A stretch of 64,000 nucleotides of DNA, taken from assembly GCA_947627915.1 (NCBI GenBank), contig CANQXT010000001.1:2231-66230 (forward strand), given 5' to 3'. The notes below the pieces were generated by a model. The model did no database searches, had not been told where the DNA came from, and saw only the letters and a program-made list of their open reading frames with translations. The first letter of the stretch is position 1; each line of letters begins with the position of its first letter. The position numbers were made by a program, and so were the translations under genes. This document shows positions 3,177 through 53,124 of this stretch, piece by piece. Source of the DNA: an uncultured Bacilli bacterium (lineage in GTDB: Bacteria; Bacillota_I; Bacilli_A; RF39; UBA660).

Positions 3177-4371
3177 ATGCAGAACAACTTGGATCATCAT
3201 CTACAGGATGGCAACCATAACCAACCATACCTACTTGACCATCTGCAAAACCTTTTTGCCCATCCATTTCTAATATTACCCATTGATGAGTATAACCATT
3301 TTCATTAGTATGAGTCATATTTTTAAATCCCATATATTCAAGTACTAATAAAAGTGCTCTTGTACAGCCAGCACATGATGCTGAATGAGTAACAAAAACG
3401 CCATAAGCCGTACGATAATCAAAGCCACTTTCAACGTGTTTTGATGGATCATAGTTACTAGCAACTGCTTCGGCCGCAGCTTCTACTTTATCAATATCTT
3501 TTGTATAACCTTTAGCTAATATTTCGCTAGCAATTTGTTTAGCTATAGCACTAGCTTCAGCATCTTTTTGACAAGCATCGGGATCTTCTTTTTTATAGCC
3601 ACGTTTCTTTAAGGTATTTGTAAATGTACAACCAGTTTGAGTACTTGTACTTCCTGAATTACTTCCACTACTATTACCTGTACTAGGATTAGTTGTACTT
3701 TTAGCTTTGACGGTAACTTTATAAGTTGCTTCAGTTCTATTACCATTATGATCGGTAGCATAAACTAAAACTGTATAAGTACCAGCTTTACTAGTATTAA
3801 CGGTACTATCTGTTTTAACTTCAATATTACCTTCAAATTCATCAGTAGCACTAATACCACTAAGTAAATCTATTTTATCCCCAACTGTAATTGTTTTATT
3901 TTTAATTCCCGTTATAATAGGTTTAATGGTATCAACAATATTTAATGTAATTTCTTTTTGATCATTAATAGTTTTAATTATAACTTTTAAATTGCCAACT
4001 GTATCAAAAAGATATTCTTGATCACTTAATAATTCCTTATCATTAATTATAATTTTATATTCTAATTCGATATCTAAAGGTGTAATATTTACTAAATTAT
4101 CGATAAAATCTTTATAAGTCCATTTCGATAAATATTCAATATCACTATTAAATAATTTTAAAACAATTTCTTTTTTAGATATTTCTGGATTTTGAACTTC
4201 TACTTCATTATTTGCATCTTTAGTTACTTTATTATCTAAATTTTTATATTTGACAAATTTATAAGTAGTAAAAGAAATACACCCAATTAAAATAATAACA
4301 CTTATAATAACTATACTAAGATATTTTCCTTTTAATATAACATCTTTTTCTTTATTATTTATATTTTTCAA
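3175..4371 (-). CDS. Membrane-anchored surface protein with Ig-like (DUF5011-like) domain, Ser/Gly/Thr-rich linker and Cys-rich C-terminal domain
   Basis: 398 aa with an N-terminal TM anchor, a central beta-rich ATDxxGN...YKVTVKAK segment and a GNSSGSNSGSTST linker. The C-terminal domain has 7 Cys (CAGCTRALL...GCHPVDDDPSCSA). Confidence 0.5.
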   Translation of the reverse strand: MKNINNKEKDVILKGKYLSIVIISVIILIGCISFTTYKFVKYKNLDNKVTKDANNEVEVQNPEISKKEIVLKLFNSDIEYLSKWTYKDFIDNLVNITPLDIELEYKIIINDKELLSDQEYLFDTVGNLKVIIKTINDQKEITLNIVDTIKPIITGIKNKTITVGDKIDLLSGISATDEFEGNIEVKTDSTVNTSKAGTYTVLVYATDHNGNRTEATYKVTVKAKSTTNPSTGNSSGSNSGSTSTQTGCTFTNTLKKRGYKKEDPDACQKDAEASAIAKQIASEILAKGYTKDIDKVEAAAEAVASNYDPSKHVESGFDYRTAYGVFVTHSASCAGCTRALLLVLEYMGFKNMTHTNENGYTHQWVILEMDGQKGFADGQVGMVGYGCHPVDDDPSCSA

Positions 4372-4449
4372 TTTAACTCACCTTATATTTTTATTTTACC
4401 CTTATAAAATAAATAATACAATAAGTTATAATTAAAAAATTGACAATAT

Positions 4450-5115
4450 TTAACTTTCAAATATTTCTTTTAAAAATATTCTTTTTCTTATAATCCCTTT
4501 ATTTAATTCTTCAAGACGCATCTTAGATAATTCTTGTTGCATAAATAAAGGTAATATATTTATAGGTAGATATATATTTTTAAATATATTATCTAAATTA
4601 TCTCTTAATATCTTTACTTCTTTCTTATTCTTTTTATTATAAAAATGATAATTATCATATAAATAATTATATTCTATTTCATAATTCTTTGTTTTTATTT
4701 GCATATTATAGTAATTAATATAAATATTATAATTATTAATTGTTATATTTAATTCATATTTAGCAAAATCATCATATTTACTATATTCATCAATTATATT
4801 TAATAAGTATTCTTTTAAATATGCATAAACAAAACTTAAAAAAGTTCCATTAATACTTGGTTTATTTCGAAGTTCATTATTTTTATCTTTATAAAATAAA
4901 ATATTATCTCCCATAACAGTACCCATTGAATGGGGATCTATAACAGATAATTCTTTTTTATTATGATCAAAATCCATTATAACAATACTATCTTCATTAT
5001 ACATTTTTTCTAACTCATAATTAGCTTTATCACTAATAAGATAATAATTATAATAATATTCTCTAAATAATGTTGCTATATTATATAAAGATATTTCATT
5101 TACATTAGTATTCAT
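4450..5115 (-). CDS. Hypothetical cytoplasmic protein (Tyr/Asn-rich)
   Basis: 221-aa ORF. No TM segment and no recognised motifs. Confidence 0.4.
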   Translation of the reverse strand: MNTNVNEISLYNIATLFREYYYNYYLISDKANYELEKMYNEDSIVIMDFDHNKKELSVIDPHSMGTVMGDNILFYKDKNNELRNKPSINGTFLSFVYAYLKEYLLNIIDEYSKYDDFAKYELNITINNYNIYINYYNMQIKTKNYEIEYNYLYDNYHFYNKKNKKEVKILRDNLDNIFKNIYLPINILPLFMQQELSKMRLEELNKGIIRKRIFLKEIFES

Positions 5116-5178
5116 AATATCATCCCTTTTTTCTTGATATTATATATAAATACTTTTCAAAATGCAATAAAAAAGAAG

Positions 5179-5400
5179 TTAATCTTCTTTAACTTCAAAA
5201 TCTTTAAGTTCCCCATCACTAGATAAAATTTTATTTACTTTTTCAGTAGCGTTGTTTATTTTATCAGTACAATTTTTAGCAATTTCCATTGCTTCCGTAT
5301 ATTTTTTAATCGCGTCTTCTAAAGGAACATTACCACTTTCAAGTTCTTTGACTAATCCTTCTAAATCTTTTAAATTTTCTTCAAATGTTTTTTCTTCCAT
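5179..5400 (-). CDS. xseB: Exodeoxyribonuclease VII small subunit
   Basis: 73 aa: FEENLKDLEGLVKELESGNVPLEDAIKKYTEAMEIAKNC is the typical XseB helical hairpin. Confidence 0.85.
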   Translation of the reverse strand: MEEKTFEENLKDLEGLVKELESGNVPLEDAIKKYTEAMEIAKNCTDKINNATEKVNKILSSDGELKDFEVKED

Positions 5401-6055
5401 AATTTTTATCCTTTCTTCTTTCTAATTTTATACCCTTTGTATTATTTGTTTCATTTAAAATATTATTTATTTTTTCTTCTGCTTGCATTTCTTTAAAAAA
5501 TTTATTATTTGTTTTCAAAAATTCTTCATCGACACTAATTTGATCTTTAAGCATTTCAATTTCATTAGCTAAATCTTCAATTTGGGTAAAAATATCATTC
5601 TTTGTAATTTGTAATTTATGCAATTTAGATTCAGTTATATCTATAAGACTATCGACATCTTCTTCTTTCCAAGTTTTACTTATAGCAATATCTTTATATG
5701 GTAAATCGATTAAAGTTAAACCAAAAAGTAAAACAACATATATTAAGAGTATTAACCAGTCTATCACTACTGCAAAATCAAAGCCAAAAAGACATATATT
5801 TAATATTATTGTAAGTATAATATAAATCCAAGTCATTTTTTTATTAACGCCATCCATCAATGTTGGATAATTTTGTAAACTTTCTTTAATTTCATTTAAT
5901 TCTTGAATCTTATTTTGATAATTCATTTCTTCTTTATTTAAATTACTTTCTTGTTTTTCTAATTTTTCTAACTTTTTATTCATTTCAGTTAAAATTTTAT
6001 TATTCCCTATTAATCTTTCATATATTAATTTTAACTTTTCATAATCAATATTCAT
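5381..6055 (-). CDS. Hypothetical membrane protein with N-terminal coiled-coil, inserted between xseA and xseB
   Basis: 224 aa. Heptad-rich N-terminus, two hydrophobic TM helices (WIYIILTIILNICLFGF... and WLILLIYVVLLFGLTLI) and a coiled-coil C-terminus. Overlaps the xseB start by 20 nt. Confidence 0.5.
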   Translation of the reverse strand: MNIDYEKLKLIYERLIGNNKILTEMNKKLEKLEKQESNLNKEEMNYQNKIQELNEIKESLQNYPTLMDGVNKKMTWIYIILTIILNICLFGFDFAVVIDWLILLIYVVLLFGLTLIDLPYKDIAISKTWKEEDVDSLIDITESKLHKLQITKNDIFTQIEDLANEIEMLKDQISVDEEFLKTNNKFFKEMQAEEKINNILNETNNTKGIKLERRKDKNYGRKNI

Positions 6056-7986: not shown

Positions 7987-10527
7987 TTATTTAGCATTCT
8001 TCTTTAATTCATATAAGAAATTTAAAGCTTCAATTGGAGTCATATTTAATGGATCAATATTTTCTAATTTTTTCTTTAAATCATCACTTTCTTTTTTGGG
8101 TTCAGAAAAATCAAAACTTAATTGAACTTTTTCTTCTTTAAAATTATTCTTTTTACTATTATTTTCATATTGAGCTAGTATTTCATCAGCTCTTTTTAAC
8201 AAATCTTCAGGCATTTGTGCAAGTCTTGCAACGTGAATACCATAACTCTTATCAATTGCGCCATTTTTAACTTTATGTAAAAAAGTAATTTTACCTTCAT
8301 TTTCAATTGCGGAAACATGGACATTTTTTATTGTCTTATATTTCTTATCTAAACTAGTAAGTTCATGATAATGGGTTGAAAATAAAGTTAATGCGTGAAT
8401 ATTATTACTTATATATTCAAGTATTGCTTGAGCTAAACTCATTCCATCATAGGTTGCTGTTCCTCTTCCAAGTTCATCAAAAATAATTAAACTATTTTCC
8501 GTCGCATTTACTAAAGCATTACGTGCTTCTTTCATTTCCACCATAAAAGTTGATTCACCAGAAACTAAATCATCACTAGCACCAATTCTTGTAAATATTT
8601 TATCTATAATTGGTAATTTAGCTTTTTTAGCTGGTACAAAAGAACCCATTTGAGCCATTAATATAATAATTGCTACTTCCCTCATATACGTTGATTTACC
8701 ACTCATGTTTGGTCCTGTTATTAAAAGAGTACTACTATCTTTATTCATTATACAATCATTAGGTACATAACTATCTTTGGATACTATTTCAACTACCGGA
8801 TGTCTTCCATCAATAATTTCTAATTCCTTATTATTATTTAAAATTGGTCTTACTAAATTTAATTCTTCACTACAAATGGAAAGGGATAAAATAGCATCAA
8901 CACTACTAATACTATCTGCTGTTTTCTTTATCTTTAAAACTTCTTTTTTAATGATATTCTTGATTTCAATAAATAAATTATATTCTAAATCAATTATTCT
9001 TTCTTCCGCATTAAGTATTAAATCTTCTTTTTCTTTCAATTCTGGAGAAATAAATCTTTCATAATTAGCTAAAGTTTGTCTTCTTTCCCAACCAAACTTT
9101 TCTGTTACTTCCTTGCTTTGACCTTTAGATACTTCAATATAATAACCAAAAACTTTATTATATCCTACTCTTAAATTTTTAATACCTGTTTCTTCTTTAA
9201 TTTTATTTTCAAAAGATACTAAATAATCTTTACCACCACTTCTAATACTTTTAAGTTCATCTAATTCTTTATTATATCCTTCTTTAATTAAATAACCTTC
9301 TTTAATACTAATTGGAGGATTTTCATATAAAGCACTCTCAAGTAACATATATATTTCTTTGTGTGTATCAATATTATCATCAAAATTTAATGTATTTAAT
9401 ATTTCTTTAATTCTTGGTAATACTTTTAAACTATTTTTAAGTTGTAATAAATCTCGGCCATTAACATTACCACAAGTAACTTTACCACATAATCTTTCTA
9501 AATCATATATTTCATATAATAATTCTTTTAATTCATCTTTTAAGATAAAATTATTATTTAATATTTCAATCTTATCATATCTTTTATTAAGTTCATTTAT
9601 ATCTTTTAATGGATGCATTAAATAACTTTTTAATTTACGACTACCCATCGCAGTTTTACATTTATCTAAAAGCCATATTAAACTATAAGTTCTTTCTTTT
9701 AATCTAATTGTTTCAAATAATTCTAAATTTCTTTCTGTATGAACATCCATCTCTAAATAATCTAATTTTTCAATTACTTTACATTCATTAAAATGACTAA
9801 TATCTTTTAATTCTTTAACTACTAAATAATAAAATAAATGATTTACTCCTGCTTTACTTCGAACATCTTTTAGATTATCTAAGAATTCTATTTCATCTTT
9901 ATAATATTCTTTAGAGAAAACTACATCAATACCATATTTATCTCTTAAAATATTAATTAAATTAAGATCACTATTATCAATTAATACTACTTCTTTAATT
10001 CCTAAACTTAATACTTCATTAATTAATTTATCAATATTTTTAGATATAGTTAAACTATTTAATTCCCCAGTAGAAATATCAGCATATGTAATTATATATA
10101 TATCACTAAAATCTAAGATACTTGCTATATAAGAATTATTTCTTTCATCAAGTAATTCAAAATCAGTAATAGTACCCTTACTAATAACATCAACTACTCC
10201 TCTTTTAACAGTATCTTTAGTAGTTTTAGGATCTTCTAATTGTTCACAAATAGCAACCCGATAACCTTTATTAACTATTTTTTCTAAATAAGTTTTAACA
10301 GCGTGATAAGGTACACCACACATAGGTACTTTTTCTTCTAAACCTGCAGCTTTACCGGTTAAAGTTAATTCAAGTTCTCTAGAAGCAATTAAAGCATCTT
10401 CAAAAAAAAGTTCATAAAAATCCCCTAAGCGAAAAAATAAAAGTTCTTCTTGATAATTATCTTTTATTTCCATATATTGTCGCATCATTGGACTTAATTT
10501 TGTTCTATCTACTTCATTTCTTTTCAT
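7987..10527 (-). CDS. mutS: DNA mismatch repair protein MutS
   Basis: 846 aa. Mismatch-recognition domain I with GDFYELF, ABC ATPase domain GPNMSGKSTYMRQ and DELGRGTATYDG. No mutL adjacent. Confidence 0.9.
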   Translation of the reverse strand: MKRNEVDRTKLSPMMRQYMEIKDNYQEELLFFRLGDFYELFFEDALIASRELELTLTGKAAGLEEKVPMCGVPYHAVKTYLEKIVNKGYRVAICEQLEDPKTTKDTVKRGVVDVISKGTITDFELLDERNNSYIASILDFSDIYIITYADISTGELNSLTISKNIDKLINEVLSLGIKEVVLIDNSDLNLINILRDKYGIDVVFSKEYYKDEIEFLDNLKDVRSKAGVNHLFYYLVVKELKDISHFNECKVIEKLDYLEMDVHTERNLELFETIRLKERTYSLIWLLDKCKTAMGSRKLKSYLMHPLKDINELNKRYDKIEILNNNFILKDELKELLYEIYDLERLCGKVTCGNVNGRDLLQLKNSLKVLPRIKEILNTLNFDDNIDTHKEIYMLLESALYENPPISIKEGYLIKEGYNKELDELKSIRSGGKDYLVSFENKIKEETGIKNLRVGYNKVFGYYIEVSKGQSKEVTEKFGWERRQTLANYERFISPELKEKEDLILNAEERIIDLEYNLFIEIKNIIKKEVLKIKKTADSISSVDAILSLSICSEELNLVRPILNNNKELEIIDGRHPVVEIVSKDSYVPNDCIMNKDSSTLLITGPNMSGKSTYMREVAIIILMAQMGSFVPAKKAKLPIIDKIFTRIGASDDLVSGESTFMVEMKEARNALVNATENSLIIFDELGRGTATYDGMSLAQAILEYISNNIHALTLFSTHYHELTSLDKKYKTIKNVHVSAIENEGKITFLHKVKNGAIDKSYGIHVARLAQMPEDLLKRADEILAQYENNSKKNNFKEEKVQLSFDFSEPKKESDDLKKKLENIDPLNMTPIEALNFLYELKKNAK

Positions 10528-10586
10528 AACTTTTATTATACTCTTATTATTTTTTATTTACAATTAAAAAGTAACAATTTTATTTG

Positions 10587-11762
10587 CTACTTCTTTCTTA
10601 CTAACTTACTTGGATTTATATCATCATTTTCCCATTTGTTACATAAATCCAAATAATTATCAATCACTGCCATTTTTTCTTTTTCAATATTATGTAGTTT
10701 CTTTTTTCTTTTTTCAGCATATTGTTCATAATTAAAATTTAAAACACTATTTAATTTATTTTTTAATTGTTCTATAAAATTATTATCTTCTGGTTTAGCA
10801 TATTTAATAATATTATAGAATTCAAAACAATAATAATTATATAATTTTTTATTATCATAAAGTTTATTTAATATTACATAATCTTTTCTATCATCTGAAA
10901 CATTATAAACAACATTTAAGAAAGAGATAATTTCATTGGAATAATTAAATCTTTTAGTAATATAAGTAATTAAATCAAAATCTTCCCGATTCACTTTTTT
11001 ATTAAGAAGCAATTTAACTAATTCATTTTTATTATGAATAGTTCCTTCATCATCAAATACTAAATTAAAATTATAAATACCATAGATAAAGAATTTAATA
11101 TCATCATCAATATCTTTGTTACTATTAATTAATATATTGAAAAACTGATTTAAATCATCTAAATCTTCTTTCGATTTAACTAGAGATTTTAAAAATTCGC
11201 CAATTAAATCTAAAATATTAGGATTACTTGTTAAATCAAGTTTCTTAACAAAGTTTTTAAAAGTCGCATATTCAATTTTAGAACTTAATTTTTCAAAATA
11301 TATTTGAAAAAATCCACCAATATAATCAGCACAAATATCACTTTTAGCATTATATATTTTCGAAATACATTCTTGGATTAAATCTAAAGATACATCTTTT
11401 TTAAAAGAAGTATTATTAATAAACATATATACATATTTACTAGGTTTATCAATATATTCTTGTGCTAAAATTATATTATAATCATTATTTCTTAATTCTT
11501 TTCTTATAAGTATATCCGCAACATTACTTTTTATTTCTTTATTAGAACACTTTATATATATATCCAAAGCTGTAAAAACATGTTCTTGCACTGGAATAGT
11601 TAAAATAATTCGAATTTTATTATCTAAATCTTCTTTATCTTTTGCTCCATTAATATAATTTAATAATATTTCATCTGATAATAATAGTTCATTAATAATA
11701 GATAAATCAATATTATTATCTTGTAATATTTTAATTGTTTCTTTTAAATATTTACCTAACAT
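10587..11762 (-). CDS. Hypothetical all-helical cytoplasmic protein, paralog A of a tandem pair
   Basis: 391 aa. N-terminus (KILQDNNIDLSIINELLLSDEILLNYINGAKDKEDL) and C-terminal tail (DINPSKLVRKK) match the downstream neighbour. Confidence 0.5.
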   Translation of the reverse strand: MLGKYLKETIKILQDNNIDLSIINELLLSDEILLNYINGAKDKEDLDNKIRIILTIPVQEHVFTALDIYIKCSNKEIKSNVADILIRKELRNNDYNIILAQEYIDKPSKYVYMFINNTSFKKDVSLDLIQECISKIYNAKSDICADYIGGFFQIYFEKLSSKIEYATFKNFVKKLDLTSNPNILDLIGEFLKSLVKSKEDLDDLNQFFNILINSNKDIDDDIKFFIYGIYNFNLVFDDEGTIHNKNELVKLLLNKKVNREDFDLITYITKRFNYSNEIISFLNVVYNVSDDRKDYVILNKLYDNKKLYNYYCFEFYNIIKYAKPEDNNFIEQLKNKLNSVLNFNYEQYAEKRKKKLHNIEKEKMAVIDNYLDLCNKWENDDINPSKLVRKK

Positions 11763-11770
11763 ATATTCTC

Positions 11771-12973
11771 CTACTTCTTTCTTACTAATTTACTTGGATT
11801 TATTTCATTATCAGCTTCTTTATCACATATATTTATATACTCATCTAATGTTTTATTTCTTTTTTTAGTTGCTTTATCTATTTTTTCATTTTTCTTTACT
11901 GACGTTTTATTGTTATATAAAGAACTTTTAAAATGGAAAAAATCATATAATTTAGCTACAATATGTTCGGGAATATTATCATTCGTGTCATTTAAATATT
12001 TACAATAATCATTAAAATAATAATTATATTTTTCATCTTTTAAAACTTTATTTAAGAATTCATAATCTTGTTCTGTACAATTAAAATGATAAAGAAGTTT
12101 TATTATTGATACTATTTCATCAGCAAAATTATAATATCTAGTAGAAGATAAAATTATATGAATATCTTCATCATTAACTTTTTCACTAGTAATTATTTTT
12201 AATATTTCATTTTTATTCTCTACATCAACTAAACTATTATCAAATACTAAATTAAGAACATAAATATTCTTAATCTTTGCCTTTAATTTATCATCTATTA
12301 CTTTTTGACTATTAAGTAATATATTATATATTTGTGATAAATTATCTAATGATTCTAAAGAATTAATTGCTGATTGTAAAAAATCATTTATAAGTTCTAA
12401 AATATTTTCGTTATTAGTTAATTCATAACTATTTATAAATTTTTTAAATACGGAATATTCAATTATATTAGCTAACTTATAAATATAAATAATTAAAGCT
12501 TGTTCTTTAGACTTAGCTAAAACATTATCTTTAGCATAATATATTTCATTAATACAATCCATTAATAAATTATAATCATCATTAAATTGGTTTAAATAAA
12601 TAGACTTATAAAAAGCATAATTTGTAATAAATTTATAAACATATTTAGATGATTTATTGATATATACTTTAGCTAAAGAAATATTATAACCAGCTTGAAT
12701 TAATTCTTTATTAGTTAATATTTCTGTTATATTATCTTTTATTTTTTTATTAGTACAATTTAAATAAACATTAAGAACATCGTTTGTATCATCTACATTT
12801 GGATAATTTGTTAATATAATTTTTATAATATTATTTAAATCTTGTTCATTTTTAGCAAGATTAATTTTATTTAATAATCTTTCATCTAATAATAATAAAT
12901 CATTAATCGTATCTAAATCAATATTATTATCTTGTAATTTTTTGATAATTATTTTTAAGTCACTACCTGTCAT
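11771..12973 (-). CDS. Hypothetical all-helical cytoplasmic protein, paralog B of a tandem pair
   Basis: 400 aa. IIKKLQDNNIDLDTINDLLLLDERLLNKINLAKNEQDL at the N-terminus and EINPSKLVRKK at the C-terminus. Clear paralogy to 10587..11762. Confidence 0.5.
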   Translation of the reverse strand: MTGSDLKIIIKKLQDNNIDLDTINDLLLLDERLLNKINLAKNEQDLNNIIKIILTNYPNVDDTNDVLNVYLNCTNKKIKDNITEILTNKELIQAGYNISLAKVYINKSSKYVYKFITNYAFYKSIYLNQFNDDYNLLMDCINEIYYAKDNVLAKSKEQALIIYIYKLANIIEYSVFKKFINSYELTNNENILELINDFLQSAINSLESLDNLSQIYNILLNSQKVIDDKLKAKIKNIYVLNLVFDNSLVDVENKNEILKIITSEKVNDEDIHIILSSTRYYNFADEIVSIIKLLYHFNCTEQDYEFLNKVLKDEKYNYYFNDYCKYLNDTNDNIPEHIVAKLYDFFHFKSSLYNNKTSVKKNEKIDKATKKRNKTLDEYINICDKEADNEINPSKLVRKK

Positions 12974-13045
12974 TTTACATTCCTTCCACGTTTATTTATT
13001 ATAGTATAAAAAATATATACATTCAACAAAAAATGATATTAATTT

Positions 13046-15469
13046 TTAATCAATATCATTTCTAGCTAAAATGGTTGCAGGAGTAAGTCTTACAATATTA
13101 TATACAGGTAATAAGCCCACTATTACATTAAAGATAAATATTAAAAGAATACTTAAAGAGATTGTCAAAATATTCACAATATAAAGACTGGAAAGTAAAG
13201 TTATTCCTTTTAAACAATATAATATATAACTCATAAATAATACACCAGGAATACTTGCTAAAGAAGTAATAGCAATTATTTCTCCCACAAACATTTTATA
13301 AATATCACTCTTTTTAAGACCAATTGCTCTATAAATACCAACTTCTTTTATTCTACTTAAGAAAGATGCTCTAATAATTAAGATAATTTCAATTAAAGAG
13401 ATAATTAAGATAACGAAAGATAAAGTTAAAGTATTTATTATAGAATCTTTTTTACTATTTAAATATTTTGTTTTATCATAATCGTATGCATCTTTAATAT
13501 TACGATTAATATTTTTAAAATAATTAATTGTTTTATCTTTATTTTGACTAGATATTGTTATTTCTTTACTGTCATTAATTAATTTATATTTAATAGTGTT
13601 ATTATTAACTAAATAATAATTAAAATCTGCTTCATAATAACCTTTTACTACTAAATTATGATTATTAATTTTTAAATCTAATTCTTTATCTAAAGGATAA
13701 ATATCTTTTAGAGATGAATTAATTATTACTTCATAATCATTAGTGGGATAATTTCCTTTAACTAATTTAATATCATCAAATAATTTATAATCTAAAATAC
13801 TTATATTATCATCAACTAATTCCCAATTACTTTTTGGATAACTATTACTAATTATATTTAGGAAATCTTTTTTAGGCATATATATATTTGGTTCATTTAA
13901 ATTAGTTATACCCACTATTAAATAAGAAAGATTATTTTTTAAAAATATTTTTTGATTTAAAAAATCATCTTCATTCATAAAACCAGACATTAATGAATTA
14001 TTATCTTTAATAAAACGATCTATAACTAATTTATCAACTACTACTTCGTTATTATTTATAGGCATTCTTCCTTTAAATAAATCATCTTCCTTTATAGTAG
14101 CAATATCGGATAAAGAAGAAGATAAAAGGCCTTCATAATTAGCTGTTTGTAAATATTTATCGTAGTGTAAAATAAAATTAATAATGGAATCACCTGGTAT
14201 TAAATAATTTATATTATCTAACTTTTCATAATTTAAATAATCATCGATAGTAATATTACTAGTTACATTTAAATAATCTTTATTAACAGTTATATATTCT
14301 TCTTCTTTAATATTAAGAGTAGCAAAAATACTAGAGATAGCATAGAAAATAAACATACCAGAAATAAAGAAACCTCCTAATAATAATTTCTTTAAAAAAG
14401 GATAACTAAATATTTTTTGAAAACCACTAGTAATATAAGAACCTAATTTAAAAATACTACTATATTTTAATTTTGTTTTATTACTAATTTCTTCGATATC
14501 AAAATCAATATCATTATCTATTTCTTCTATTTCTTGATAATGATCATTAATAAGTTCAATACTAGAGTTTTGATCAATAACTTCTATTTTATTTTGATTA
14601 TTATCTTCAATATAGATATTACCATTTTTGAAGACTAAATTAATATTAATATCATCATTATTATCTTTATAAATATTAATATGAAGATGATCTTTTTCGA
14701 TATTTAAAATATTAGGAAAATCTTTTAAATAAAATCTATTTTCTAATTTATAATTTAATTTTTTATTCTCTCTATTAGGATATGTTTTTTCAATTAGACC
14801 ATCTTTTAATTCAATGATATGTGTCGCATAAAATCTAGCTAATTCTTCTTCGTGAGTAACTAGAATAACTAAATAATTATTAGATAATTTTTTAATAATA
14901 TTCATTATTTCTAAACTATTTTTACTATCTAAGTTACCTGTAGGTTCATCAGCTAAAATAATAGATGGATTCTTAACGATTGCTCTGGCTATACCTACTC
15001 TTTGTTTTTCACCTCCAGAAAGCATACTTGCTGGTCTATTTTTATAACGGGCCATATTTACTTTTTCCAAAGTATACATAACTCTTTTTTTTATTTCTTC
15101 TTTATCTTTAATTCCAATTAATTTTAAGGAAATAGCAACATTATCAAAAACAGATAAGTTATCAATTAATTTATAATCTTGAAAAATATAACCAATCTTT
15201 AAATTTCTAATTTTATCTATTTGATTTACATTTCTTTTAGTAATTTTTTCTCCATCAATATAAATATTACCACTGGAAACTTTATCTAAACCACCAATTG
15301 TGTTTAAAAGAGTTGTTTTACCACATCCCGAAGGACCAAGGATAGCTACTAAACCAGTTTTATTAAAATCAATTGAGGTATTATTGATAACGTGAATTTG
15401 ATTCTTTTTATAACGATTAAAATATTTATTAACATTTTCTAACTTTATCATCTTATATCCTCTCTCCAT
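13046..15469 (-). CDS. Fused ABC transporter ATPase + FtsX/MacB-type permease
   Basis: 807 aa. N-terminal NBD (GPSGCGKTTLLN, LSGGEKQRVGIARA, ILADEPTGNLD), one TM helix, a large extracytoplasmic domain and a C-terminal FtsX-like 3-TM bundle. Overlaps the upstream partner by 17 nt. Confidence 0.8.
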   Translation of the reverse strand: MERGYKMIKLENVNKYFNRYKKNQIHVINNTSIDFNKTGLVAILGPSGCGKTTLLNTIGGLDKVSSGNIYIDGEKITKRNVNQIDKIRNLKIGYIFQDYKLIDNLSVFDNVAISLKLIGIKDKEEIKKRVMYTLEKVNMARYKNRPASMLSGGEKQRVGIARAIVKNPSIILADEPTGNLDSKNSLEIMNIIKKLSNNYLVILVTHEEELARFYATHIIELKDGLIEKTYPNRENKKLNYKLENRFYLKDFPNILNIEKDHLHINIYKDNNDDININLVFKNGNIYIEDNNQNKIEVIDQNSSIELINDHYQEIEEIDNDIDFDIEEISNKTKLKYSSIFKLGSYITSGFQKIFSYPFLKKLLLGGFFISGMFIFYAISSIFATLNIKEEEYITVNKDYLNVTSNITIDDYLNYEKLDNINYLIPGDSIINFILHYDKYLQTANYEGLLSSSLSDIATIKEDDLFKGRMPINNNEVVVDKLVIDRFIKDNNSLMSGFMNEDDFLNQKIFLKNNLSYLIVGITNLNEPNIYMPKKDFLNIISNSYPKSNWELVDDNISILDYKLFDDIKLVKGNYPTNDYEVIINSSLKDIYPLDKELDLKINNHNLVVKGYYEADFNYYLVNNNTIKYKLINDSKEITISSQNKDKTINYFKNINRNIKDAYDYDKTKYLNSKKDSIINTLTLSFVILIISLIEIILIIRASFLSRIKEVGIYRAIGLKKSDIYKMFVGEIIAITSLASIPGVLFMSYILYCLKGITLLSSLYIVNILTISLSILLIFIFNVIVGLLPVYNIVRLTPATILARNDID

Positions 15470-17630
15470 AATTTTTCATAATTGAATTTTTAAATACTTT
15501 TTTACCATATCTATTTGCTATTAAGATGGATAAAATAATTAAGATTAGATAAATAAGAAGATATTCTTTATACGTTAAATATTTTATCATCGTTTCTAAA
15601 TAAGTAAATTTAAGAAGATTATTATTAATTAAGATAACTAAAAAGATAAAAACTAAATAAGCAACATTAACAAAAGTTAATAATTCATTTCTTAATATTT
15701 TAATACAATCATTTTTATTACAACCTAAACTTCTTAAAGTTACATAATAATTATTTCTTGATTTATAAATTAATTTAATAACAAAATAACTAATAAAGAA
15801 AACAGTTATAAGTAAGATAATAGTAATAATTAATTTAAAAATTTTTAATATTTGCATTATTTGATTTAGATCATTTATTTTAGTATCTTTTAATTTTAAA
15901 GTATTATAACCCATATTATTTAATGTTTTAGCAACTTCATTAAGATCTTTATATTCTTTTATAAAAACAGATATTTGATAATTATCTTGATTACTATATA
16001 TTTTATTATAATCATTTTCATTTACAATAAAATAACTATTATTATCTTCATAATCACCATTTAGATAATTATTATAATTTTTCTTATTTAAAGTATTAAT
16101 ATTTGTAAAGATAACTTTATTTTGCTTATATATATTATGACTATTAATTTCTATTTCTTTATTATGACAATCATAATTAGAACAATATGCATTATAATTT
16201 TCACTTATATATATTTCACCATCTAATAACTTATTACTTACTAATATATCGGCATAATCAATTGGTTTATTATCAATCTTAATATCTAAATTAGTATATT
16301 CTCTATTAACATAAGGCATTATTTGGTTAATTAAATTATCATTAAAATAAAAGTTAGTTACATAAAAATCTAAATCATCTAAATAAAGAATACCAACAAT
16401 TTTAACATTTAAATCATAACTATCAAGACTAAATTCTTTATTTAATAATTCATCTTTTATATCATTTATATAATAATTATCTTTATTAGAAATTAAAACT
16501 ATCTCATTATTATTTTTAGGTAAATTACCAATATCTACTCGATCTATCTTTTTTAAATATAAAGTACCATCTAAATAAATATTTTTATTATTTAAATAGA
16601 AATATTGATCATTTAAAACATCATTTTGGACTATATAATCTATTAAAGAAATATTTTCTATTTTAGATATGTCTTCTTCATTAAAAGAACTATTATCTTT
16701 TTTCTTTAAAATAATTCTTTTATCAGTAGTATTATAAAAATATTGATTAATTCCATATAAAGATTCAGTATTTTCACTATCTTCTATTCCACCATAATTA
16801 CTAACCAAAGTTAAAATAATAAAACAAAAGATAAAAAACATTAACATAAATTTAACTGGTAAATTAAAAGTATTTCGAATACCTAATTTTAATTTAGCAA
16901 GCATACTAATTTTTTGGGCACTTTTTTCTTGTAATGAAGCATCTAAATTAATTTTTTGGATAACTCTATTTTCAAGTATTTTTCCATCATGCATCCGAAT
17001 TAATCTAGTCGCATATTCCATAATTTCATTTTGATTATGAGTTACCACAATTACTAATTTATCTTTGGAAATATTAGCTAAAAGTTCTAAGATACTTTTA
17101 GATGATTTACTATCTAAAGATCCAGTTGGTTCATCACATACAATAATTGGCGTATCATATGCTAAAGCTCTAGCAATAGCTACTCTTTGTTTTTGACCAC
17201 CTGATAATTTAGAAACTTTAGTCTTTTTATATTTTGTTAAATTGACTTTCTTTATTAAATCATTTACTTTATCTTTAATATCTTTTTTCTTACTACCATT
17301 CATAAGCATTGCAAGTTCAATATTTTGATAAACAGTATAACTATTAACTAAATTAAAATTTTGAAAAATATTACTAACATATTTTTGACGATATTCTAAA
17401 TACTCTTTTTCCGTATAATGGCTTGTTTCTTCTCCATTAATATACATTTCTCCTTCTTCATAAGTATCAAGACCAGATAAAACGTTTAAAAGAGTTGACT
17501 TACCACTTCCCGATTCTCCTGTAATAACCACAAATTCACCTAAAAATAATTCTAAATTAATTTTAGTTATACCGGCAGCAATAACACCATCTTGATAATA
17601 ATATTTAGAAACATTCTTTAATTTTAACAT
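15453..17630 (-). CDS. Fused ABC transporter ATPase + FtsX/MacB-type permease
   Basis: 725 aa. GESGSGKSTLLN, LSGGQKQRVAIARA, IVCDEPTGSLD and C-terminal TM helices. Tandem with 13046..15469. Confidence 0.8.
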   Translation of the reverse strand: MLKLKNVSKYYYQDGVIAAGITKINLELFLGEFVVITGESGSGKSTLLNVLSGLDTYEEGEMYINGEETSHYTEKEYLEYRQKYVSNIFQNFNLVNSYTVYQNIELAMLMNGSKKKDIKDKVNDLIKKVNLTKYKKTKVSKLSGGQKQRVAIARALAYDTPIIVCDEPTGSLDSKSSKSILELLANISKDKLVIVVTHNQNEIMEYATRLIRMHDGKILENRVIQKINLDASLQEKSAQKISMLAKLKLGIRNTFNLPVKFMLMFFIFCFIILTLVSNYGGIEDSENTESLYGINQYFYNTTDKRIILKKKDNSSFNEEDISKIENISLIDYIVQNDVLNDQYFYLNNKNIYLDGTLYLKKIDRVDIGNLPKNNNEIVLISNKDNYYINDIKDELLNKEFSLDSYDLNVKIVGILYLDDLDFYVTNFYFNDNLINQIMPYVNREYTNLDIKIDNKPIDYADILVSNKLLDGEIYISENYNAYCSNYDCHNKEIEINSHNIYKQNKVIFTNINTLNKKNYNNYLNGDYEDNNSYFIVNENDYNKIYSNQDNYQISVFIKEYKDLNEVAKTLNNMGYNTLKLKDTKINDLNQIMQILKIFKLIITIILLITVFFISYFVIKLIYKSRNNYYVTLRSLGCNKNDCIKILRNELLTFVNVAYLVFIFLVILINNNLLKFTYLETMIKYLTYKEYLLIYLILIILSILIANRYGKKVFKNSIMKNYGERI

Positions 17631-24039: not shown

Positions 24040-24060
24040 AAGAAAGAATAATTCTTTCTT
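24040..24060 (-). terminator. Putative hairpin terminator overlapping the stop of the 24059..24991 gene
   Basis: aagaaagaa (24040-24048) / ttctttctt (24052-24060), preceded on the plus strand by an A-run. Confidence 0.35.
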
Positions 24061-24991
24061 AACTAACATTTAAACTATCTAATAAAAGATTACCAATACT
24101 AATATTTAATTTATTATCACTATAAGTAAAACTAATATCATTATTATCACCACTTAATTCATAAGTTTTTAATAATTCAATATTATTATAAACATATAAT
24201 GTTTGATCTTGGATTAAACCAATATATTTATCAGCATAGGTATAAGAATCAATATGATATTGTTCATATAATCTCTCACCATTATAATTAAAAATCATAT
24301 ATTCATCTCGATAACCAATTATATAATTTGGGGAATAATCTACTAAAGGCATATCAATTGCTTGACACATTGTTGTATTAGTTTGATTTATTAGATACCA
24401 CATACTATTCTTACTAACAATAAATGTTTCTGTATCAAGTTTACCATCTTCCGTTAATTTATTTTTTAAACCAATAAATTCATAATCTAGGGGAATAATA
24501 TTTTTAAAATCATTAGTTCCTGTATTATCTATTTTTATAACACCCCATAAATTATTAATCCCATTTTGAACAATATATAAATTATTATCTAGAGTAGTAT
24601 TATATGTTTTAATACTTTTTAAATTAATAAAACTTTTACCATTTCTAATATCATATAAACTTATTACATTATTATCATTTATAAAAGTATGTGATGAACC
24701 ATTATATTTAATAACATCATCTACGCCATCTTTATAATAGTTAATATGATAAGTATCATCATCAATAATTGGTTTAGCAAGTTCACAAATAGAAGATTTA
24801 CATTTATAAGTATTAATTAAATTATCTTTTGCATCATAGAACCATAAACTATTATCATAGAAGAAATCATGATTAGGATTTTCAATTACGGCACTATCTT
24901 GAATATGTTTAACTAAACCAATTATAGTAATGGGTAAAAAGATAACTAATAAAATAACAATATTTATAAGAGCAATCTTTTTATTCTTCAT
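24059..24991 (-). CDS. Hypothetical membrane-anchored extracellular protein
   Basis: 310 aa. N-terminal TM anchor (IALINIVILLVIFLPITIIGL), Asn/Tyr-rich extracellular region and a Y-x-C-x(5-6)-C motif shared with the downstream 693-aa protein. Confidence 0.45.
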   Translation of the reverse strand: MKNKKIALINIVILLVIFLPITIIGLVKHIQDSAVIENPNHDFFYDNSLWFYDAKDNLINTYKCKSSICELAKPIIDDDTYHINYYKDGVDDVIKYNGSSHTFINDNNVISLYDIRNGKSFINLKSIKTYNTTLDNNLYIVQNGINNLWGVIKIDNTGTNDFKNIIPLDYEFIGLKNKLTEDGKLDTETFIVSKNSMWYLINQTNTTMCQAIDMPLVDYSPNYIIGYRDEYMIFNYNGERLYEQYHIDSYTYADKYIGLIQDQTLYVYNNIELLKTYELSGDNNDISFTYSDNKLNISIGNLLLDSLNVS

Positions 24992-27062
24992 TATTATCAG
25001 TTCCTTCGTTATTATCTACATTATTATCTTGATTATTTTCTGTACTTGGAGTATTCTCTTCCTTATCTTGATCTTCTTTTTCTTCTTCTATACTAGTTGT
25101 TGGTATTACTTTACCATCTTTAGTATACTTATATTCTTTTCCACTTGCTTTAATAACAAAACCACTATCAGATGATTCAACTGTATAATCATCCCCAGTA
25201 ACTATAACAGGTTCTTCTAAAATACCTATTATATTATTATAACGATATATATTTAATTTACCTGCTTGAATACCAACATAATAATTATCATACATAGTTA
25301 ACATATCAAATGTAGTACTTAGTTTTTCAAAATTACTTGTATAAATAGTATAAGTATTATCTATACCTGTTAAAAGATAATAATCATTTTCTTTTCTAAT
25401 TTCTTTATATTTATAATCTATTTTACCTTTTACTGTACTACCATTTATTTCTAAAACACCATAATTACCAGCATTATTACCAGTGGCTGATTTACTTATA
25501 ATATAAGATGTTGAAGTATAGATTGGTTTTATTTCTTCATTTAATTCATTACCATTTATAATTATTTCACTATAAGTACTACGAACACGATTTGTTTTTA
25601 AATCATATAAATAGATATTTGTTAAATCACTAGCTATATTATCATAAATAAAGACATATTCATTATTATAAATACCACTATAAAGGTCATTTACTTTATA
25701 AACAGTACATTTACTTAAAGTATCACTTGTACTATTTAAAGTATTTTTATTCTCACAAGTATATGTACCAATAACATCATCTTTATCTTTATCACTATAG
25801 AAATATAATTTACCATCAAAATAACTAATTAAATCATAATTACTACTAATAATACCATCTAACATATTAATTTCTTTAGTATTATTATTTACTGTAACAT
25901 AGGCAATATTTCCTTTAACTTCAATAGAGTAAGCACTTTTAACTTCTTTTAAACGATTATTTTCATAAACGTTAACAGTAGTTAAATTATCTAATGATTC
26001 TAAACGTACACCATCTTCATTTAATTTATTTAGATGATTATCTAATAAATATAAACGATTACTTTTTACTAAACTAATAATATCATCATTTAAACTAATA
26101 TAATCATAATCACTAACTAATTCATTATAATCATAATCATATAAACTATATGTTCTATTAGTTTTAGCAACTATAAAATCACTATTTAAACTTGTTATAG
26201 AAGCTTTAAAATTACTACTTAATTTTTTACCTTCACTATCAATAACATAATAATTATCACCATCTTTAGCTAAGATATATTTTAAGGTAGGATTGATAAT
26301 TCCTAGGTAATCATAAGATGGTCTAATTAAATAATTATATTCATCTTGATTAAATTCTATTAAACCAAATTTATTAGCAGTATCTTCAATAACAACAATA
26401 TTATCTAATGCAGAATCAGCTTTTAAACTACTAATTGGTAATTTTTCACTATTACTTATATTATATAAGAATTTATCTTCACCATCTTGAACAAATACAA
26501 ATTTCTTAAAATATATTTTTGAATTAGATATTATTTCTTCTCCAGTAACATTAACATTTTTAACTCGATCAAAAATATCATTTTTATTATCTAATTTAGC
26601 TATCATACAATCAGTATCACTTTTATTAGTACATTCATATTTGCCAATTTCATTATCATTATCATCTAAGAAAATTAAATTACCATCACTATATTTATAG
26701 TTATCTTTTTCGACTATTACTGGGGTATCATCATTTGGCGTTGTTGGTTCTTTTTTATTAAATATCATAAATAAGACAATAGCAATAATAATACATAATA
26801 TTATTCCTAAGACAACAAAGAAAATTATTTTTTGCTTTTTACTTAAATCTTCCCATTTTTCTTTTAAGGTTTTTTTATGGTACTTATCTTCTCTTTTAAC
26901 TAATACTTCATTTTCTTCTTTTACTACTTCTTCTTCCTTAGTATTTTCTTTTTCTAAACTTTCTTTAGATTCACTATTATCTTGTTCTTCAGACCCTCCA
27001 AAAAAATCTTGTTCTTCATCGCTGCTATCTAATTCAATTATTTCATCGTCAAACTCTTTCAT
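24981..27062 (-). CDS. Hypothetical membrane-anchored protein with acidic cytoplasmic N-terminus and large repeat-rich extracellular domain
   Basis: 693 aa. Acidic N-terminus (EEQDFFGGSEEQDNSESKE), a TM helix (IIFFVVLGIILCIIIAIVLFMIF), repeated segments (GKYECTNKSDTDC and GTYTCENKNTLNSTSDTLSKC) and an acidic low-complexity C-terminus. Confidence 0.5.
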   Translation of the reverse strand: MKEFDDEIIELDSSDEEQDFFGGSEEQDNSESKESLEKENTKEEEVVKEENEVLVKREDKYHKKTLKEKWEDLSKKQKIIFFVVLGIILCIIIAIVLFMIFNKKEPTTPNDDTPVIVEKDNYKYSDGNLIFLDDNDNEIGKYECTNKSDTDCMIAKLDNKNDIFDRVKNVNVTGEEIISNSKIYFKKFVFVQDGEDKFLYNISNSEKLPISSLKADSALDNIVVIEDTANKFGLIEFNQDEYNYLIRPSYDYLGIINPTLKYILAKDGDNYYVIDSEGKKLSSNFKASITSLNSDFIVAKTNRTYSLYDYDYNELVSDYDYISLNDDIISLVKSNRLYLLDNHLNKLNEDGVRLESLDNLTTVNVYENNRLKEVKSAYSIEVKGNIAYVTVNNNTKEINMLDGIISSNYDLISYFDGKLYFYSDKDKDDVIGTYTCENKNTLNSTSDTLSKCTVYKVNDLYSGIYNNEYVFIYDNIASDLTNIYLYDLKTNRVRSTYSEIIINGNELNEEIKPIYTSTSYIISKSATGNNAGNYGVLEINGSTVKGKIDYKYKEIRKENDYYLLTGIDNTYTIYTSNFEKLSTTFDMLTMYDNYYVGIQAGKLNIYRYNNIIGILEEPVIVTGDDYTVESSDSGFVIKASGKEYKYTKDGKVIPTTSIEEEKEDQDKEENTPSTENNQDNNVDNNEGTDNNEE

Positions 27063-39761: not shown

Positions 39762-41420
39762 CTATTTTTTCATTAATTCAATTATTTTTGCTTTATCTAT
39801 TTCAATATTACCACTATTTAAAATAAATTCATTATTTTTAACAAATCTTTTATAATTATTTTGATTATGAGCATCTAAAATAAAAGTTTTAATACTAGGA
39901 ATTAATAATTTTTCTTGATAAGTTTTATTTTGCATATCAAATACTTTTAAAGATGGCATTGATACTACCCTTAAAACAATTCCTAAAGAAATTAAACTTT
40001 TAGCAATTGTTATTGCATCATTAACATTATAACCAGAAGCAATTAGAATACCATTAACCGTATCACTTTCCTTTTTTACTGGATAACTTCCAGCTTGAAC
40101 ATATTTATAATTTGTCTCTTTAAGAGCTTTTACTTTCTTATTGGAAATAATATTAACGGTTGTTTTAGAATAACTATTCAATATTTCATATACCCCAATT
40201 ACTTCATTAATATCTCCTGGACGAAAACAAATTAAATTATCTAAACAATTTAAAAGATCGATATAATTAATTACATTGTCATCTTCTAAGAAAGTATAAT
40301 GAATATCTAAATTATTATTAGCACTTTCAATAATACTATCTAATATATGAGGCATATTATTTAATTTAGAACTTATAAATACTTTAAAATTAAGAATAGC
40401 TAAACCAATTGCAATATCATTTAACAAGTTAATTTGATTAGGTAAAATAATATTACGATGCGTTACATTAGTATTATCCATAATTAAAGATTTAGACAAA
40501 GTTTGAATATCTTCTCTATCAGATAAATTTAGAATAAAAGCATTTTTATTACTAAATATATTAAATATCTTTTGATTACTTTGAATTATTTTTTCTTCAT
40601 AATCATCATTTAATTTAATATTAGAAGCTTTAAAATTATTAATAACTTTTTTATTTTCTAAGAAATTAATAATTTCTTGTAATTTTAAATCTTTCATTGC
40701 TTTTTGTTTAACAAGATTACTCTTTTCTAAATCTTTATTTAATCTTTTTAAAAGACTATCAAACATATCATTAACATTAACATTCTCTTTAATTTTAGGA
40801 ACATTTTTAGTTCTAATATTTACAAAGATAATTGTTGGTATCTTACTAGTTTTGGTATCATCTAAAATATTTTCTAATTTAGATAAGCCATTAACTTCTT
40901 CAATATGAAATTTAAGATATGCCAAACGATCTGTTAAATTTTCTACACATTTATCATAGTTATCTTTAACAACTATATATACCATTTTATTTAATTTAAA
41001 ATTATTACAACAAAAAATATTATTAAAGACATTATTATTTAATAATTCATCATATTTACAAATACAAAAAGTTCTACTCGTAATTAAATTAGTTTTATTA
41101 TCTTCAATTTTAGCTAAACCATTTAAATATCTATTTCCAAGAGCTACTCCTAAAGAAATACCAAAAGCATTATCTATTTTATAATTAGTAATATTTTCAG
41201 TATCTTTATAAAATAACTTTAAGATACTTTGATGTATATTAGCTAATTTAGGACTAACAAATACTCTATCTTTATTGAAATAATTATAATTATTAGGATC
41301 AAATATTAAATTATTTCTATATAAGCGATATAATAAATCAATTATATCTAAATTAATATCTTTTTCGTCAATATATTCTAATTTTAAATTATTTACTATA
41401 CTTAAATCTATTTTGTTCAT
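39762..41420 (-). CDS. Degenerate transketolase-like protein (probable pseudo-enzyme)
   Basis: 552 aa. FNKDRVFVSPKLANIHQSILKLFYKD aligns to the transketolase [26 protein letters not shown] region but with the GHGS His motif replaced. GISLGVALGNRYLNG aligns to GQGIAMAVGMAIAER. The C-terminus resembles the TK C-terminal domain. Shorter than a real Tkt (about 660 aa), and TPP-binding and catalytic residues are not recognisable. Confidence 0.45.
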   Translation of the reverse strand: MNKIDLSIVNNLKLEYIDEKDINLDIIDLLYRLYRNNLIFDPNNYNYFNKDRVFVSPKLANIHQSILKLFYKDTENITNYKIDNAFGISLGVALGNRYLNGLAKIEDNKTNLITSRTFCICKYDELLNNNVFNNIFCCNNFKLNKMVYIVVKDNYDKCVENLTDRLAYLKFHIEEVNGLSKLENILDDTKTSKIPTIIFVNIRTKNVPKIKENVNVNDMFDSLLKRLNKDLEKSNLVKQKAMKDLKLQEIINFLENKKVINNFKASNIKLNDDYEEKIIQSNQKIFNIFSNKNAFILNLSDREDIQTLSKSLIMDNTNVTHRNIILPNQINLLNDIAIGLAILNFKVFISSKLNNMPHILDSIIESANNNLDIHYTFLEDDNVINYIDLLNCLDNLICFRPGDINEVIGVYEILNSYSKTTVNIISNKKVKALKETNYKYVQAGSYPVKKESDTVNGILIASGYNVNDAITIAKSLISLGIVLRVVSMPSLKVFDMQNKTYQEKLLIPSIKTFILDAHNQNNYKRFVKNNEFILNSGNIEIDKAKIIELMKK

Positions 41421-48844: not shown

Positions 48845-48845
48845 T

Positions 48846-52870: not shown

Positions 52871-52980
52871 CTAAATTAATTATACAGTTAAAGTCCAAAA
52901 AAGTCAATATATTTTCTTATAGGAAAATATAATTAAAAATATTGCTTTATGTTTTCCTATTACTTATTATTTGCCATTCC

Positions 52981-53067
52981 TAGAAATATTCAAAATAATA
53001 CCGATACTAAGCATACTCACAAGTAACGAAAAGCTACTATAACTAAGAAAAGATAAAATAACTTTCT
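52981..53067. repeat. Degenerate duplicate of the ftsW 3' end (direct repeat with 54094..54180); att-like scar
   Basis: An 87-bp direct-repeat pair with about 85% identity by eye: tagaaatattcaaaataatacc... occurs at both 52981 and 54094. Copy B encodes the true FtsW C-terminus (...LSYGGSSLLVSMLSIGIILNISKNN*). Copy A would encode ...LSYSSFSLLVSMLSIGIILNISRNGK*. Confidence 0.6.
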
Positions 53068-53124
53068 AAACATTACCAATATAGTTGATTTTTAATATGT
53101 TGCACTTTCACAATAACTAAATAA

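Follow-up and report, generated by a model that had tools for sequence, protein, structure and literature searches.

A tandem pair of diverged orphan paralogues upstream of mutS in an uncultured gut Bacilli bacterium

A stretch of 64,000 nucleotides from an uncultured Bacilli bacterium (assembly GCA_947627915.1, contig CANQXT010000001.1; the whole stretch is called the window hereafter) carries two adjacent genes for paralogous proteins of an orphan family, named X in this work, of which XA is the 391-residue and XB the 400-residue member. The X proteins are 33–52% identical among congeneric genomes, whereas the adjacent MutS proteins are 95–98% and other shared neighbours 62–99% identical, a contrast that bears out the substantial divergence claimed in the preliminary description of the locus. 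Tentatively, X is regarded as a clade-restricted, dispensable, soluble and all-helical binding protein, the conserved ends of which would dock partners while the body diverges. The family is new at the level of sequence, and a new mechanism is not implied so far.

The X genes, their conservation and their divergence

XB (11771..12973, minus strand) is the first gene of the pair and is followed by its paralogue XA (10587..11762, minus strand). Two adjacent open reading frames (ORFs) of 391 and 400 codons had been described at exactly these positions as tandem diverged paralogues, and the relationship was confirmed by a BLASTP identity of 43% over the full length (E 7e-84, far beyond chance). 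Both proteins contain the N-terminal motif LQDNNIDL..IN.LLL.DE.LLN.IN.AK and the identical tail INPSKLVRKK that had been pointed out, and the absence of transmembrane segments is upheld by a maximal Kyte-Doolittle mean over 19 residues of 1.1–1.3, which is too low for a membrane helix.

The frames bear the marks of genuine genes. The chance of a 391-codon frame staying open at the base composition of the window is 5e-21, and 391–400 codons are kept in all five X types, which are 33–67% identical to each other and retain their ends and hydrophobic core. Between two strains of the window's species, the ratio of nonsynonymous to synonymous polymorphism (pN/pS) is 0.34 for XB and 0.38 for XA, compared with 0.06–0.07 for the flanking ATP-binding cassette (ABC) genes and mutS, and X shows more synonymous changes than expected (P = 0.007). 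The GC content at third codon positions (GC3) is 7–9% in X against a window mean of 10.6%, the first two codon positions rank among the lowest in GC content, and the base composition of X is native to the genome. A protein identical to XB (P0004) was found in independent assemblies and a 98% identical XA variant (P0001) in other samples, and the XB-XA tandem is present in 10 of 10 fetched contigs of the window's species. XA and XB thus appear to be native genes under purifying but relaxed selection. The notion that they are decaying pseudogenes or chance reading frames could draw on the low GC content at the first two codon positions, the richness of the proteins in Asn, Lys and Ile, and the lack of homologues outside the clade; set against the open-frame probability, the length and ends retained by all types, the ribosome-binding sites and the synonymous excess, it is hardly credible and can be considered effectively refuted.

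As the preliminary description had stated, no domain could be recognised in either protein. Pfam and NCBIfam gave no match to XA or XB even at E values up to 10, PADLOC-DB 2.0 gave none for XA, XB and P0002 and only chance-level matches for P0005 (E 0.008–0.012), and PHROGs gave nothing above chance for XA, XB and their relatives. Sequence profiles of the PDB, searched both with the entire protein and with its N-terminal module alone, returned chance-level matches only, among them a mitoribosomal S4 protein (E 1.4) and the UBA domain of EDD1 (E 0.25), the latter being the best PDB sequence match of the module. When 1.84 billion representative proteins were searched exhaustively with a HMMER profile, only three X clusters were recovered, while word-index searches yielded five clusters at 90% identity. 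No X relative was found in JGI metagenome contigs and IMG/VR contigs scanned with family patterns, nor by tblastn in 50,697 phage and 72,556 plasmid records; with no relatives on such records and a GC3 native to the genome, X was rejected as phage or plasmid cargo.

The known X members all come from gut metagenome assemblies, mostly of rabbit; one relative belongs to the metagenome-assembled genome "uncultured Bacilli bacterium isolate Lapin-017__bin12" and one member was obtained from the separate read set SRR11585417. No X relative is encoded at any of 80 related mutS loci (MutS 39–81% identical), where the genes upstream of mutS bear no relation to X (GDPD, DUF5698/DUF2179, Lon_C-PDZ, sigma-70 and proteins without a family match). 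X therefore appears to be confined to a handful of congeneric gut Bacilli. A conserved core or housekeeping gene, which the preliminary description had named as the outcome that would speak against its reading, was rejected on account of this absence and of a divergence far beyond that of the neighbours: no housekeeping family could be assigned, and X is single-copy in the other carriers yet missing from the next-closest relatives.

Conservation is concentrated at the two ends of the protein. The N-terminal 55 residues, encoded at 12809..12973 in XB and at 11598..11762 in XA (both minus strand), show 65–85% amino-acid identity in sliding windows against 20–50% elsewhere, contain 16 residues invariant among the five types and form the best-conserved module, which in XB is predicted to comprise four short helices (residues 3–15, 20–29, 31–38 and 43–55). 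At the other end, the peptide INPSKLVRKK is encoded at 11774..11803 in XB and at 10590..10619 in XA (both minus strand), and across the five types it follows the family motif I-x-P-S-x-L-[VI]-R-x-K, in which I, P, S, L, R and K are invariant; in the L012 type the tail is longer and again ends in IRKK. In XA, the last codons AAG AAG and the stop codon form the 5' arm of a terminator stem, so the final Lys-Lys-stop of the mutS-adjacent copies appears to be conserved partly at the RNA level, through the bases of this stem. XB keeps the full tail with no terminator behind it, and for this reason the peptide is constrained at the protein level as well. The least conserved stretch of X covers residues ~320–375. 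By a hand tally, 35 of 55 invariant positions are hydrophobic or aromatic (Cys counted), with no invariant His and one invariant Cys. Gly and Pro together make up at most 3% of XA and XB, both proteins have an acidic core and a basic stretch of 50 residues at the C-terminus, and three of the five types have an acidic N-terminal module. A likeness of the tail to the C-terminal peptide of FtsZ (D-I-P-x-F-L-R) was dropped since the spacing is off by one residue; ftsZ does not lie in the window.

The all-helical build stated in the preliminary description held in so far as both AlphaFold models consist of helices only (~22–23), and it remains a prediction of low confidence, the predicted local distance difference test (pLDDT) scores being 52 and 49. 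The models were built on alignments of five sequences and were not used for assignment. When the better model (pLDDT 52) was compared with the PDB and BFVD by Foldseek, no match had an E value below 0.16, and among the top matches the template modelling (TM) score did not exceed 0.37; these non-significant top matches include the helical-repeat proteins AlkD, karyopherins, beta-catenin, AP adaptors and CLASP TOG domains. Alignment of the family with itself by hhalign detected no internal repeats (best off-diagonal E 0.32).

Three other genomes carry X, namely L001 (GCA_947632715.1), L012 (GCA_947632205.1) and L015. Between the window and L012, protein identity is 95% for MutS, 94% for NusB, 92% for XseA, 99% for XseB and 93% for PriA, falls to 62–74% for four less conserved neighbours and is 31–33% for X; between L001 and L012 it is 98.5% for MutS, 91.5% for an AMP-binding enzyme, 82% for GtrA and 34–36% for X. 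For L001 against the L012 lineage, represented by the partial contig L011 from the same species as L012, X has 0.60 nonsynonymous substitutions per site (dN), and mutS has 0.19 synonymous substitutions per site (dS) and a dN of 0.009; had the X copies been orthologues separating together with the species, the neutral expectation would be a third of this dN of X. Moreover, the X tree has the order (L012 type, (XA, (XB, (L001, L015)))) and MutS groups L001 with L012, while the X protein of L001 is nearer to XB of the window (50%) than to that of L012 (36%). Because X has diverged far beyond the genomes and its tree conflicts with that of MutS, the X types are probably older than the species carrying them. 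These comparisons are most simply read as the result of sorting or exchange of old paralogous or allelic types among species, and not as fast clock-like orthologues.

Within the window's species, 14 of the 21 strain differences in XB fall within codons 33–87 and some of them match the L015 type, which hints at exchange between X types. Recent gene conversion between XA and XB was ruled out by a longest exact shared stretch of only 20 nt, the ends being 77–78% identical; the two genes share no long identical tract, and their duplication is therefore old. In L102, a 35-bp frameshifting deletion at ~1168 (corresponding to L012 10701–10735) splits an L012-type X into ORFs of 235 and 134 codons, and because one assembly carries this deletion, X is probably dispensable.

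In L017, a contig from another strain of the window's species, the tract 3594–4412 differs from window 9629–10447, in the 5' part of mutS, at 69 sites in ~820 bp, compared with ~0.5–1% elsewhere, and this ~820-bp tract is 100% identical to mutS of the L001 species, which is present in the same set of rabbit-gut samples. The tract would represent either inter-species recombination within mutS or a chimera of metagenome assembly.

Locus organisation and transcription signals

The window has ~23% GC, and its minus strand holds all but two of the ORFs of at least 100 codons. In the direction of transcription, SMC and RNase III genes further upstream are followed by two ABC genes, XB, XA, mutS, nusB, xseA and xseB, and further on by priA. 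The two ABC genes (13046..17630, minus strand) are fused ABC ATPase and FtsX-permease genes by Pfam and are not linked to X in relatives, and mutS (7987..10527, minus strand) is complete, with the Pfam domains MutS_I, III, IV and V. The pair had been placed immediately downstream of mutS, in a position where mutL would normally be expected; since the whole neighbourhood lies on the minus strand, XB-XA is in fact upstream of mutS, and the argument from a missing mutL, which depended on this misreading of the strand, fails. The slot of a linked mutL holds nusB-xseA-xseB, likewise in L012. No mutL was found among the window ORFs of at least 500 codons, the 64-kb window being uninformative on its presence elsewhere in the genome.

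XB and XA are separated by 8 nt, and this short spacer implies co-transcription and coupled translation. A promoter-like site, TTGAAT-17 nt-TATAAT (12998..13026, minus strand), precedes the pair and matches 10 of 12 consensus positions, and it is only suggestive, since in DNA so rich in AT the promoter scan as a whole showed no enrichment over shuffled sequence. Ribosome-binding sites were read directly for both genes: GGAAGGA (12981..12987, minus strand) lies 7 nt before the XB ATG, and AGGAG (11768..11772, minus strand) overlaps the XB stop codon in front of XA. Behind XA, a hairpin resembling an intrinsic terminator (10566..10595, minus strand) has a 12-bp stem that includes the XA stop codon and is followed by a U-tract. 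Its folding energy is -10.8 kcal/mol (z -4.15), and none of 200 shuffles folds as well. It is kept in L001 and L012, both stem differences of L012 pairing via wobble (G-U to A-U; U-A to U-G); a simple terminator scan missed it for its too few G-C pairs.

The 59-nt spacer between X and mutS, in which the terminator and a mutS promoter are contained, is almost invariant across the four X-bearing genomes. The mutS promoter, TTGTAA-17 nt-TATAAT (10535..10563, minus strand), ends exactly 7 nt before the mutS ATG, and no ribosome-binding site for mutS is present in window sequence 10528–10563. The geometry TGTATAAT-7nt-ATG also precedes mutS in relatives without X (L022 3460–3490 and L023 5845–5872; MutS 79–81% identical). 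From these signals, mutS is probably transcribed from its own promoter with a leaderless mRNA across the lineage. Ahead of X, L001 and L012 have, in the position of the XB promoter-like site, the terminator of the preceding gene, followed by a promoter-like site and the ribosome-binding site of X. With a conserved terminator and a separate mutS promoter between them, X and mutS would be independent units, and X is predicted to form a transcription unit of its own rather than a member of a mutS operon. No LexA (Cheo) box was found near X, the seven matches in the window being the chance expectation, and SOS control was accordingly set aside; an Rfam scan of 7–18 kb found nothing.

X lies directly upstream of mutS in all four carrier genomes despite their differing flanks, as a tandem duplicate in the window's species and as a single copy in L001, L012 and L015. 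The order in L001 is the AMP-binding enzyme, X, mutS and then genes unrelated to those of the window. L012 has the AMP-binding enzyme, a 670-residue secreted Cys-rich protein, a 123-residue membrane protein, X, mutS, nusB, xseA and so on to priA as in the window, and L015 shows X followed by the start of mutS. The gene content just upstream of X thus varies, with two ABC-FtsX genes in the window (13046–17630), the AMP-binding enzyme only in L001 (4629–6437), and the secreted and membrane proteins beside this enzyme in L012 (7520–9915), for neither of which a family match is recorded. Rearrangement or insertion seems to take place in the region next to mutS.

Possible functions of XA and XB

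The favoured explanation, which falls somewhat short of an even chance, takes X as a soluble, non-enzymatic, all-helical binding protein that probably folds as a helical-repeat solenoid. The 55-residue N-terminal module and the C-terminal peptide at the end of the basic region would contact conserved partners, while the helical body would retain its hydrophobic core, alter its surface and thereby set specificity; the duplication into XB and XA would then have provided the window's species with two specificities. Several points weigh against this explanation. The adaptor role is drawn from the pattern of conservation alone; the models are poor and the fold matches have E values of at least 0.16, so a solenoid is unproven. 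dS is near saturation (~0.45–0.5) at a GC3 of ~10%, which leaves the ages of the X lineages qualitative only. The deletion in L102 lies on a contig of 4.5x coverage and could be an assembly error, and since all X sequences come from metagenome assemblies, chimeric contigs are possible. Finally, the adjacency of X and mutS in all carriers could mirror a functional link that is invisible to sequence analysis.

The preliminary description had regarded such pairs as typical of immunity-protein arrays, phage-defence accessory genes or regulators. In line with the first two of these, X would be a conflict gene that senses phages or acts against them on its own, or else a protein of the immunity or anti-toxin kind, and an arms race would diversify its surface. 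Extreme divergence between close genomes with retention of old types, the tandem duplication, the variable gene content upstream of mutS among congeners and the natural null allele would all suit such a role. Against it, PADLOC, PHROGs and the phage and plasmid records contain no match, no toxin, defence, nuclease, ATPase or mobile gene is adjacent, and no catalytic motif is conserved. Moreover, X occupies one fixed chromosomal site in every carrier, in one or two copies per genome, instead of being patchy, and a within-species pN/pS of 0.35 indicates relaxed rather than positive selection overall. A conflict gene is therefore considered unlikely. An array of immunity proteins against polymorphic toxins was rejected, since the neighbours are an ABC transporter and mutS, or in relatives an AMP-binding enzyme or secreted proteins, and no Pfam immunity family matches. 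A more specific version, in which X is the specificity component of an undescribed single-gene conflict or recognition system such as a phage-protein sensor or a self/non-self marker, appears decidedly doubtful; here, ancient allelic types would be kept by balancing selection at the fixed mutS-side site and exchanged between co-resident species by recombination through conserved ends, namely the 165 nt that encode the N-terminus at one end and, at the other, the terminator with the mutS promoter.

A regulatory role could be imagined by comparison with the RRNPP proteins (Rap, NprR, PlcR, PrgX and AimR), which consist of a small N-terminal helical domain and a helical-repeat sensor domain and whose paralogues diverge in specificity. 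As a cytoplasmic signal receptor or regulator of this build, X would fit in its length of ~390–400 residues, its solubility and its all-helical prediction, in four to five short N-terminal helices followed by helix pairs every ~34–39 residues, in a conserved N-terminus with a variable body, and in the existence of paralogues and diverged types. However, helix-turn-helix (HTH), tetratricopeptide repeat (TPR), Rap and AimR models in Pfam and NCBIfam did not match at E values up to 10, and hhalign comparisons with XRE-type HTH domains and a consensus TPR, both hand-typed references, gave probabilities of at most 0.2% (TPR 0.1%). In the low-confidence model the N-terminal helices span residues 3–15, 20–27, 30–38, 43–54 and 59–70, a pattern that fits an XRE-type HTH or a three-helix bundle, whereas no HTH match was found and the hhalign probability for the HTH is 0.1%. 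There is also no space for a propeptide gene, with 8 nt after XB and a 59-nt terminator-plus-promoter spacer after XA and the single copies, and the upstream spacers hold only a terminator, a promoter and a ribosome-binding site; the acidic charge of the N-terminal module in most types is a further point against a receptor of this kind, which we judge quite improbable.

A still different role, that of an accessory to mismatch repair as a partner of MutS or a substitute for MutL, is suggested by position, since X adjoins mutS upstream in four of four carriers even though the far-side genes differ, in L001 also those beyond mutS. It is very improbable in view of the separate transcription units, the null allele and the relatives that have 79–81% identical MutS and the same mutS promoter but no X. 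The variation of X (33–52%) beside so conserved a MutS (95–98%) is likewise hard to reconcile with a specific interface. MutL has an N-terminal GHKL ATPase (HATPase_c_3, DNA_mis_repair) and a C-terminal dimerisation and endonuclease domain in ~600–700 residues. X has no GHKL ATPase or endonuclease features, and as a MutL it was rejected, with ~395 residues, a predicted all-helical build, no match in Pfam or NCBIfam and no conserved His or metal-binding motif.

Significance and resemblance to known systems

X has no detectable relative in curated libraries, solved structures or, beyond its own three clusters, 1.84 billion representative proteins, and yet it is maintained by selection. Orphan families are common in uncultured AT-rich gut bacteria, which makes the finding one of modest importance; what is less ordinary is an intracellular protein that is one-third identical between genomes whose neighbouring genes are 91–98% identical, with conserved ends and a fixed site. 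Should the divergence reflect balancing or diversifying selection, X would open the way to a new recognition system in a gut lineage about which little is known. The analysis also removes the idea of a mutL replacement as a false lead and brings to light, as a by-product, a mutS promoter that is probably leaderless and is shared throughout the lineage.

Elsewhere in the window, orphan or very diverged proteins are common, and the significance of XA and XB is tempered for this reason. ORFs without a Pfam match lie at 24059–27062, 58213–58848, 59500–60405 and 4450–6055 (minus strand), with lengths of 693, 310, 211 (11.5% GC), 301, 221 and 224 residues. A gene for a 552-residue protein at 39762–41420 (minus strand) follows the monogalactosyldiacylglycerol (MGDG) synthase gene, and the corresponding slot of L001 (2362–4164) and L012 holds a 600-residue protein without detectable similarity to anything in the window, beside the conserved LexA (88%) and MGDG synthase (75%), which makes it another highly variable slot. 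Long ABC ATPase genes occur as two pairs that resemble each other in domain content, at 13046–17630 and 46601–51359 (minus strand), one gene of each pair carrying an FtsX-type permease domain (13046–15469 and 48846–51359). An AAA_14/DUF4143 ATPase and an ORF6N-domain fragment (51665–53808, minus strand) come directly after the ftsW-mraY portion of the gene cluster for cell wall and division, in a place where one would look for more division genes, and this segment is possibly a mobile or defence-type insertion.

Among known protein architectures, X invites comparison with alpha-solenoids (HEAT-, ARM- or TPR-like), for example the HEAT-like DNA glycosylase AlkD. X is likewise predicted to consist of short paired helices throughout, and it too lacks catalytic residues and has very little Gly and Pro. 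The Foldseek match to AlkD with the model of pLDDT 52 is non-significant (E 0.2; TM scores 0.22 and 0.33), and X differs from AlkD and HEAT proteins in having neither a Pfam repeat or DNA_alkylation match nor an internal sequence repeat. AlkD has a basic DNA-binding surface, whereas the core of X is acidic. To the RRNPP receptors X is similar in length, solubility, all-helical build, the arrangement of a small N-terminal module before a long helical body and the occurrence of paralogue types; it differs by the absence of sequence or profile similarity and of an adjacent peptide gene, and by an N-terminal module that is not basic.

As a gene, X resembles bacterial orphan genes in its narrow clade, AT-rich native composition, relaxed selection and apparent dispensability, but it is unlike short young proto-genes in its ~400 residues, conserved end modules, several deep types and constant site. 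At the level of loci rather than proteins, the mosaic mutS-rpoS region of E. coli and Salmonella (PMC4209514) offers a parallel, as the gene content beside mutS is variable or mosaic in both cases and a tract within mutS may have been imported. The two differ in phylum, in genes and in the side of mutS concerned, and the tract in mutS may here be an artefact; in the present lineage one family is always present beside mutS, and it is its sequence that varies.

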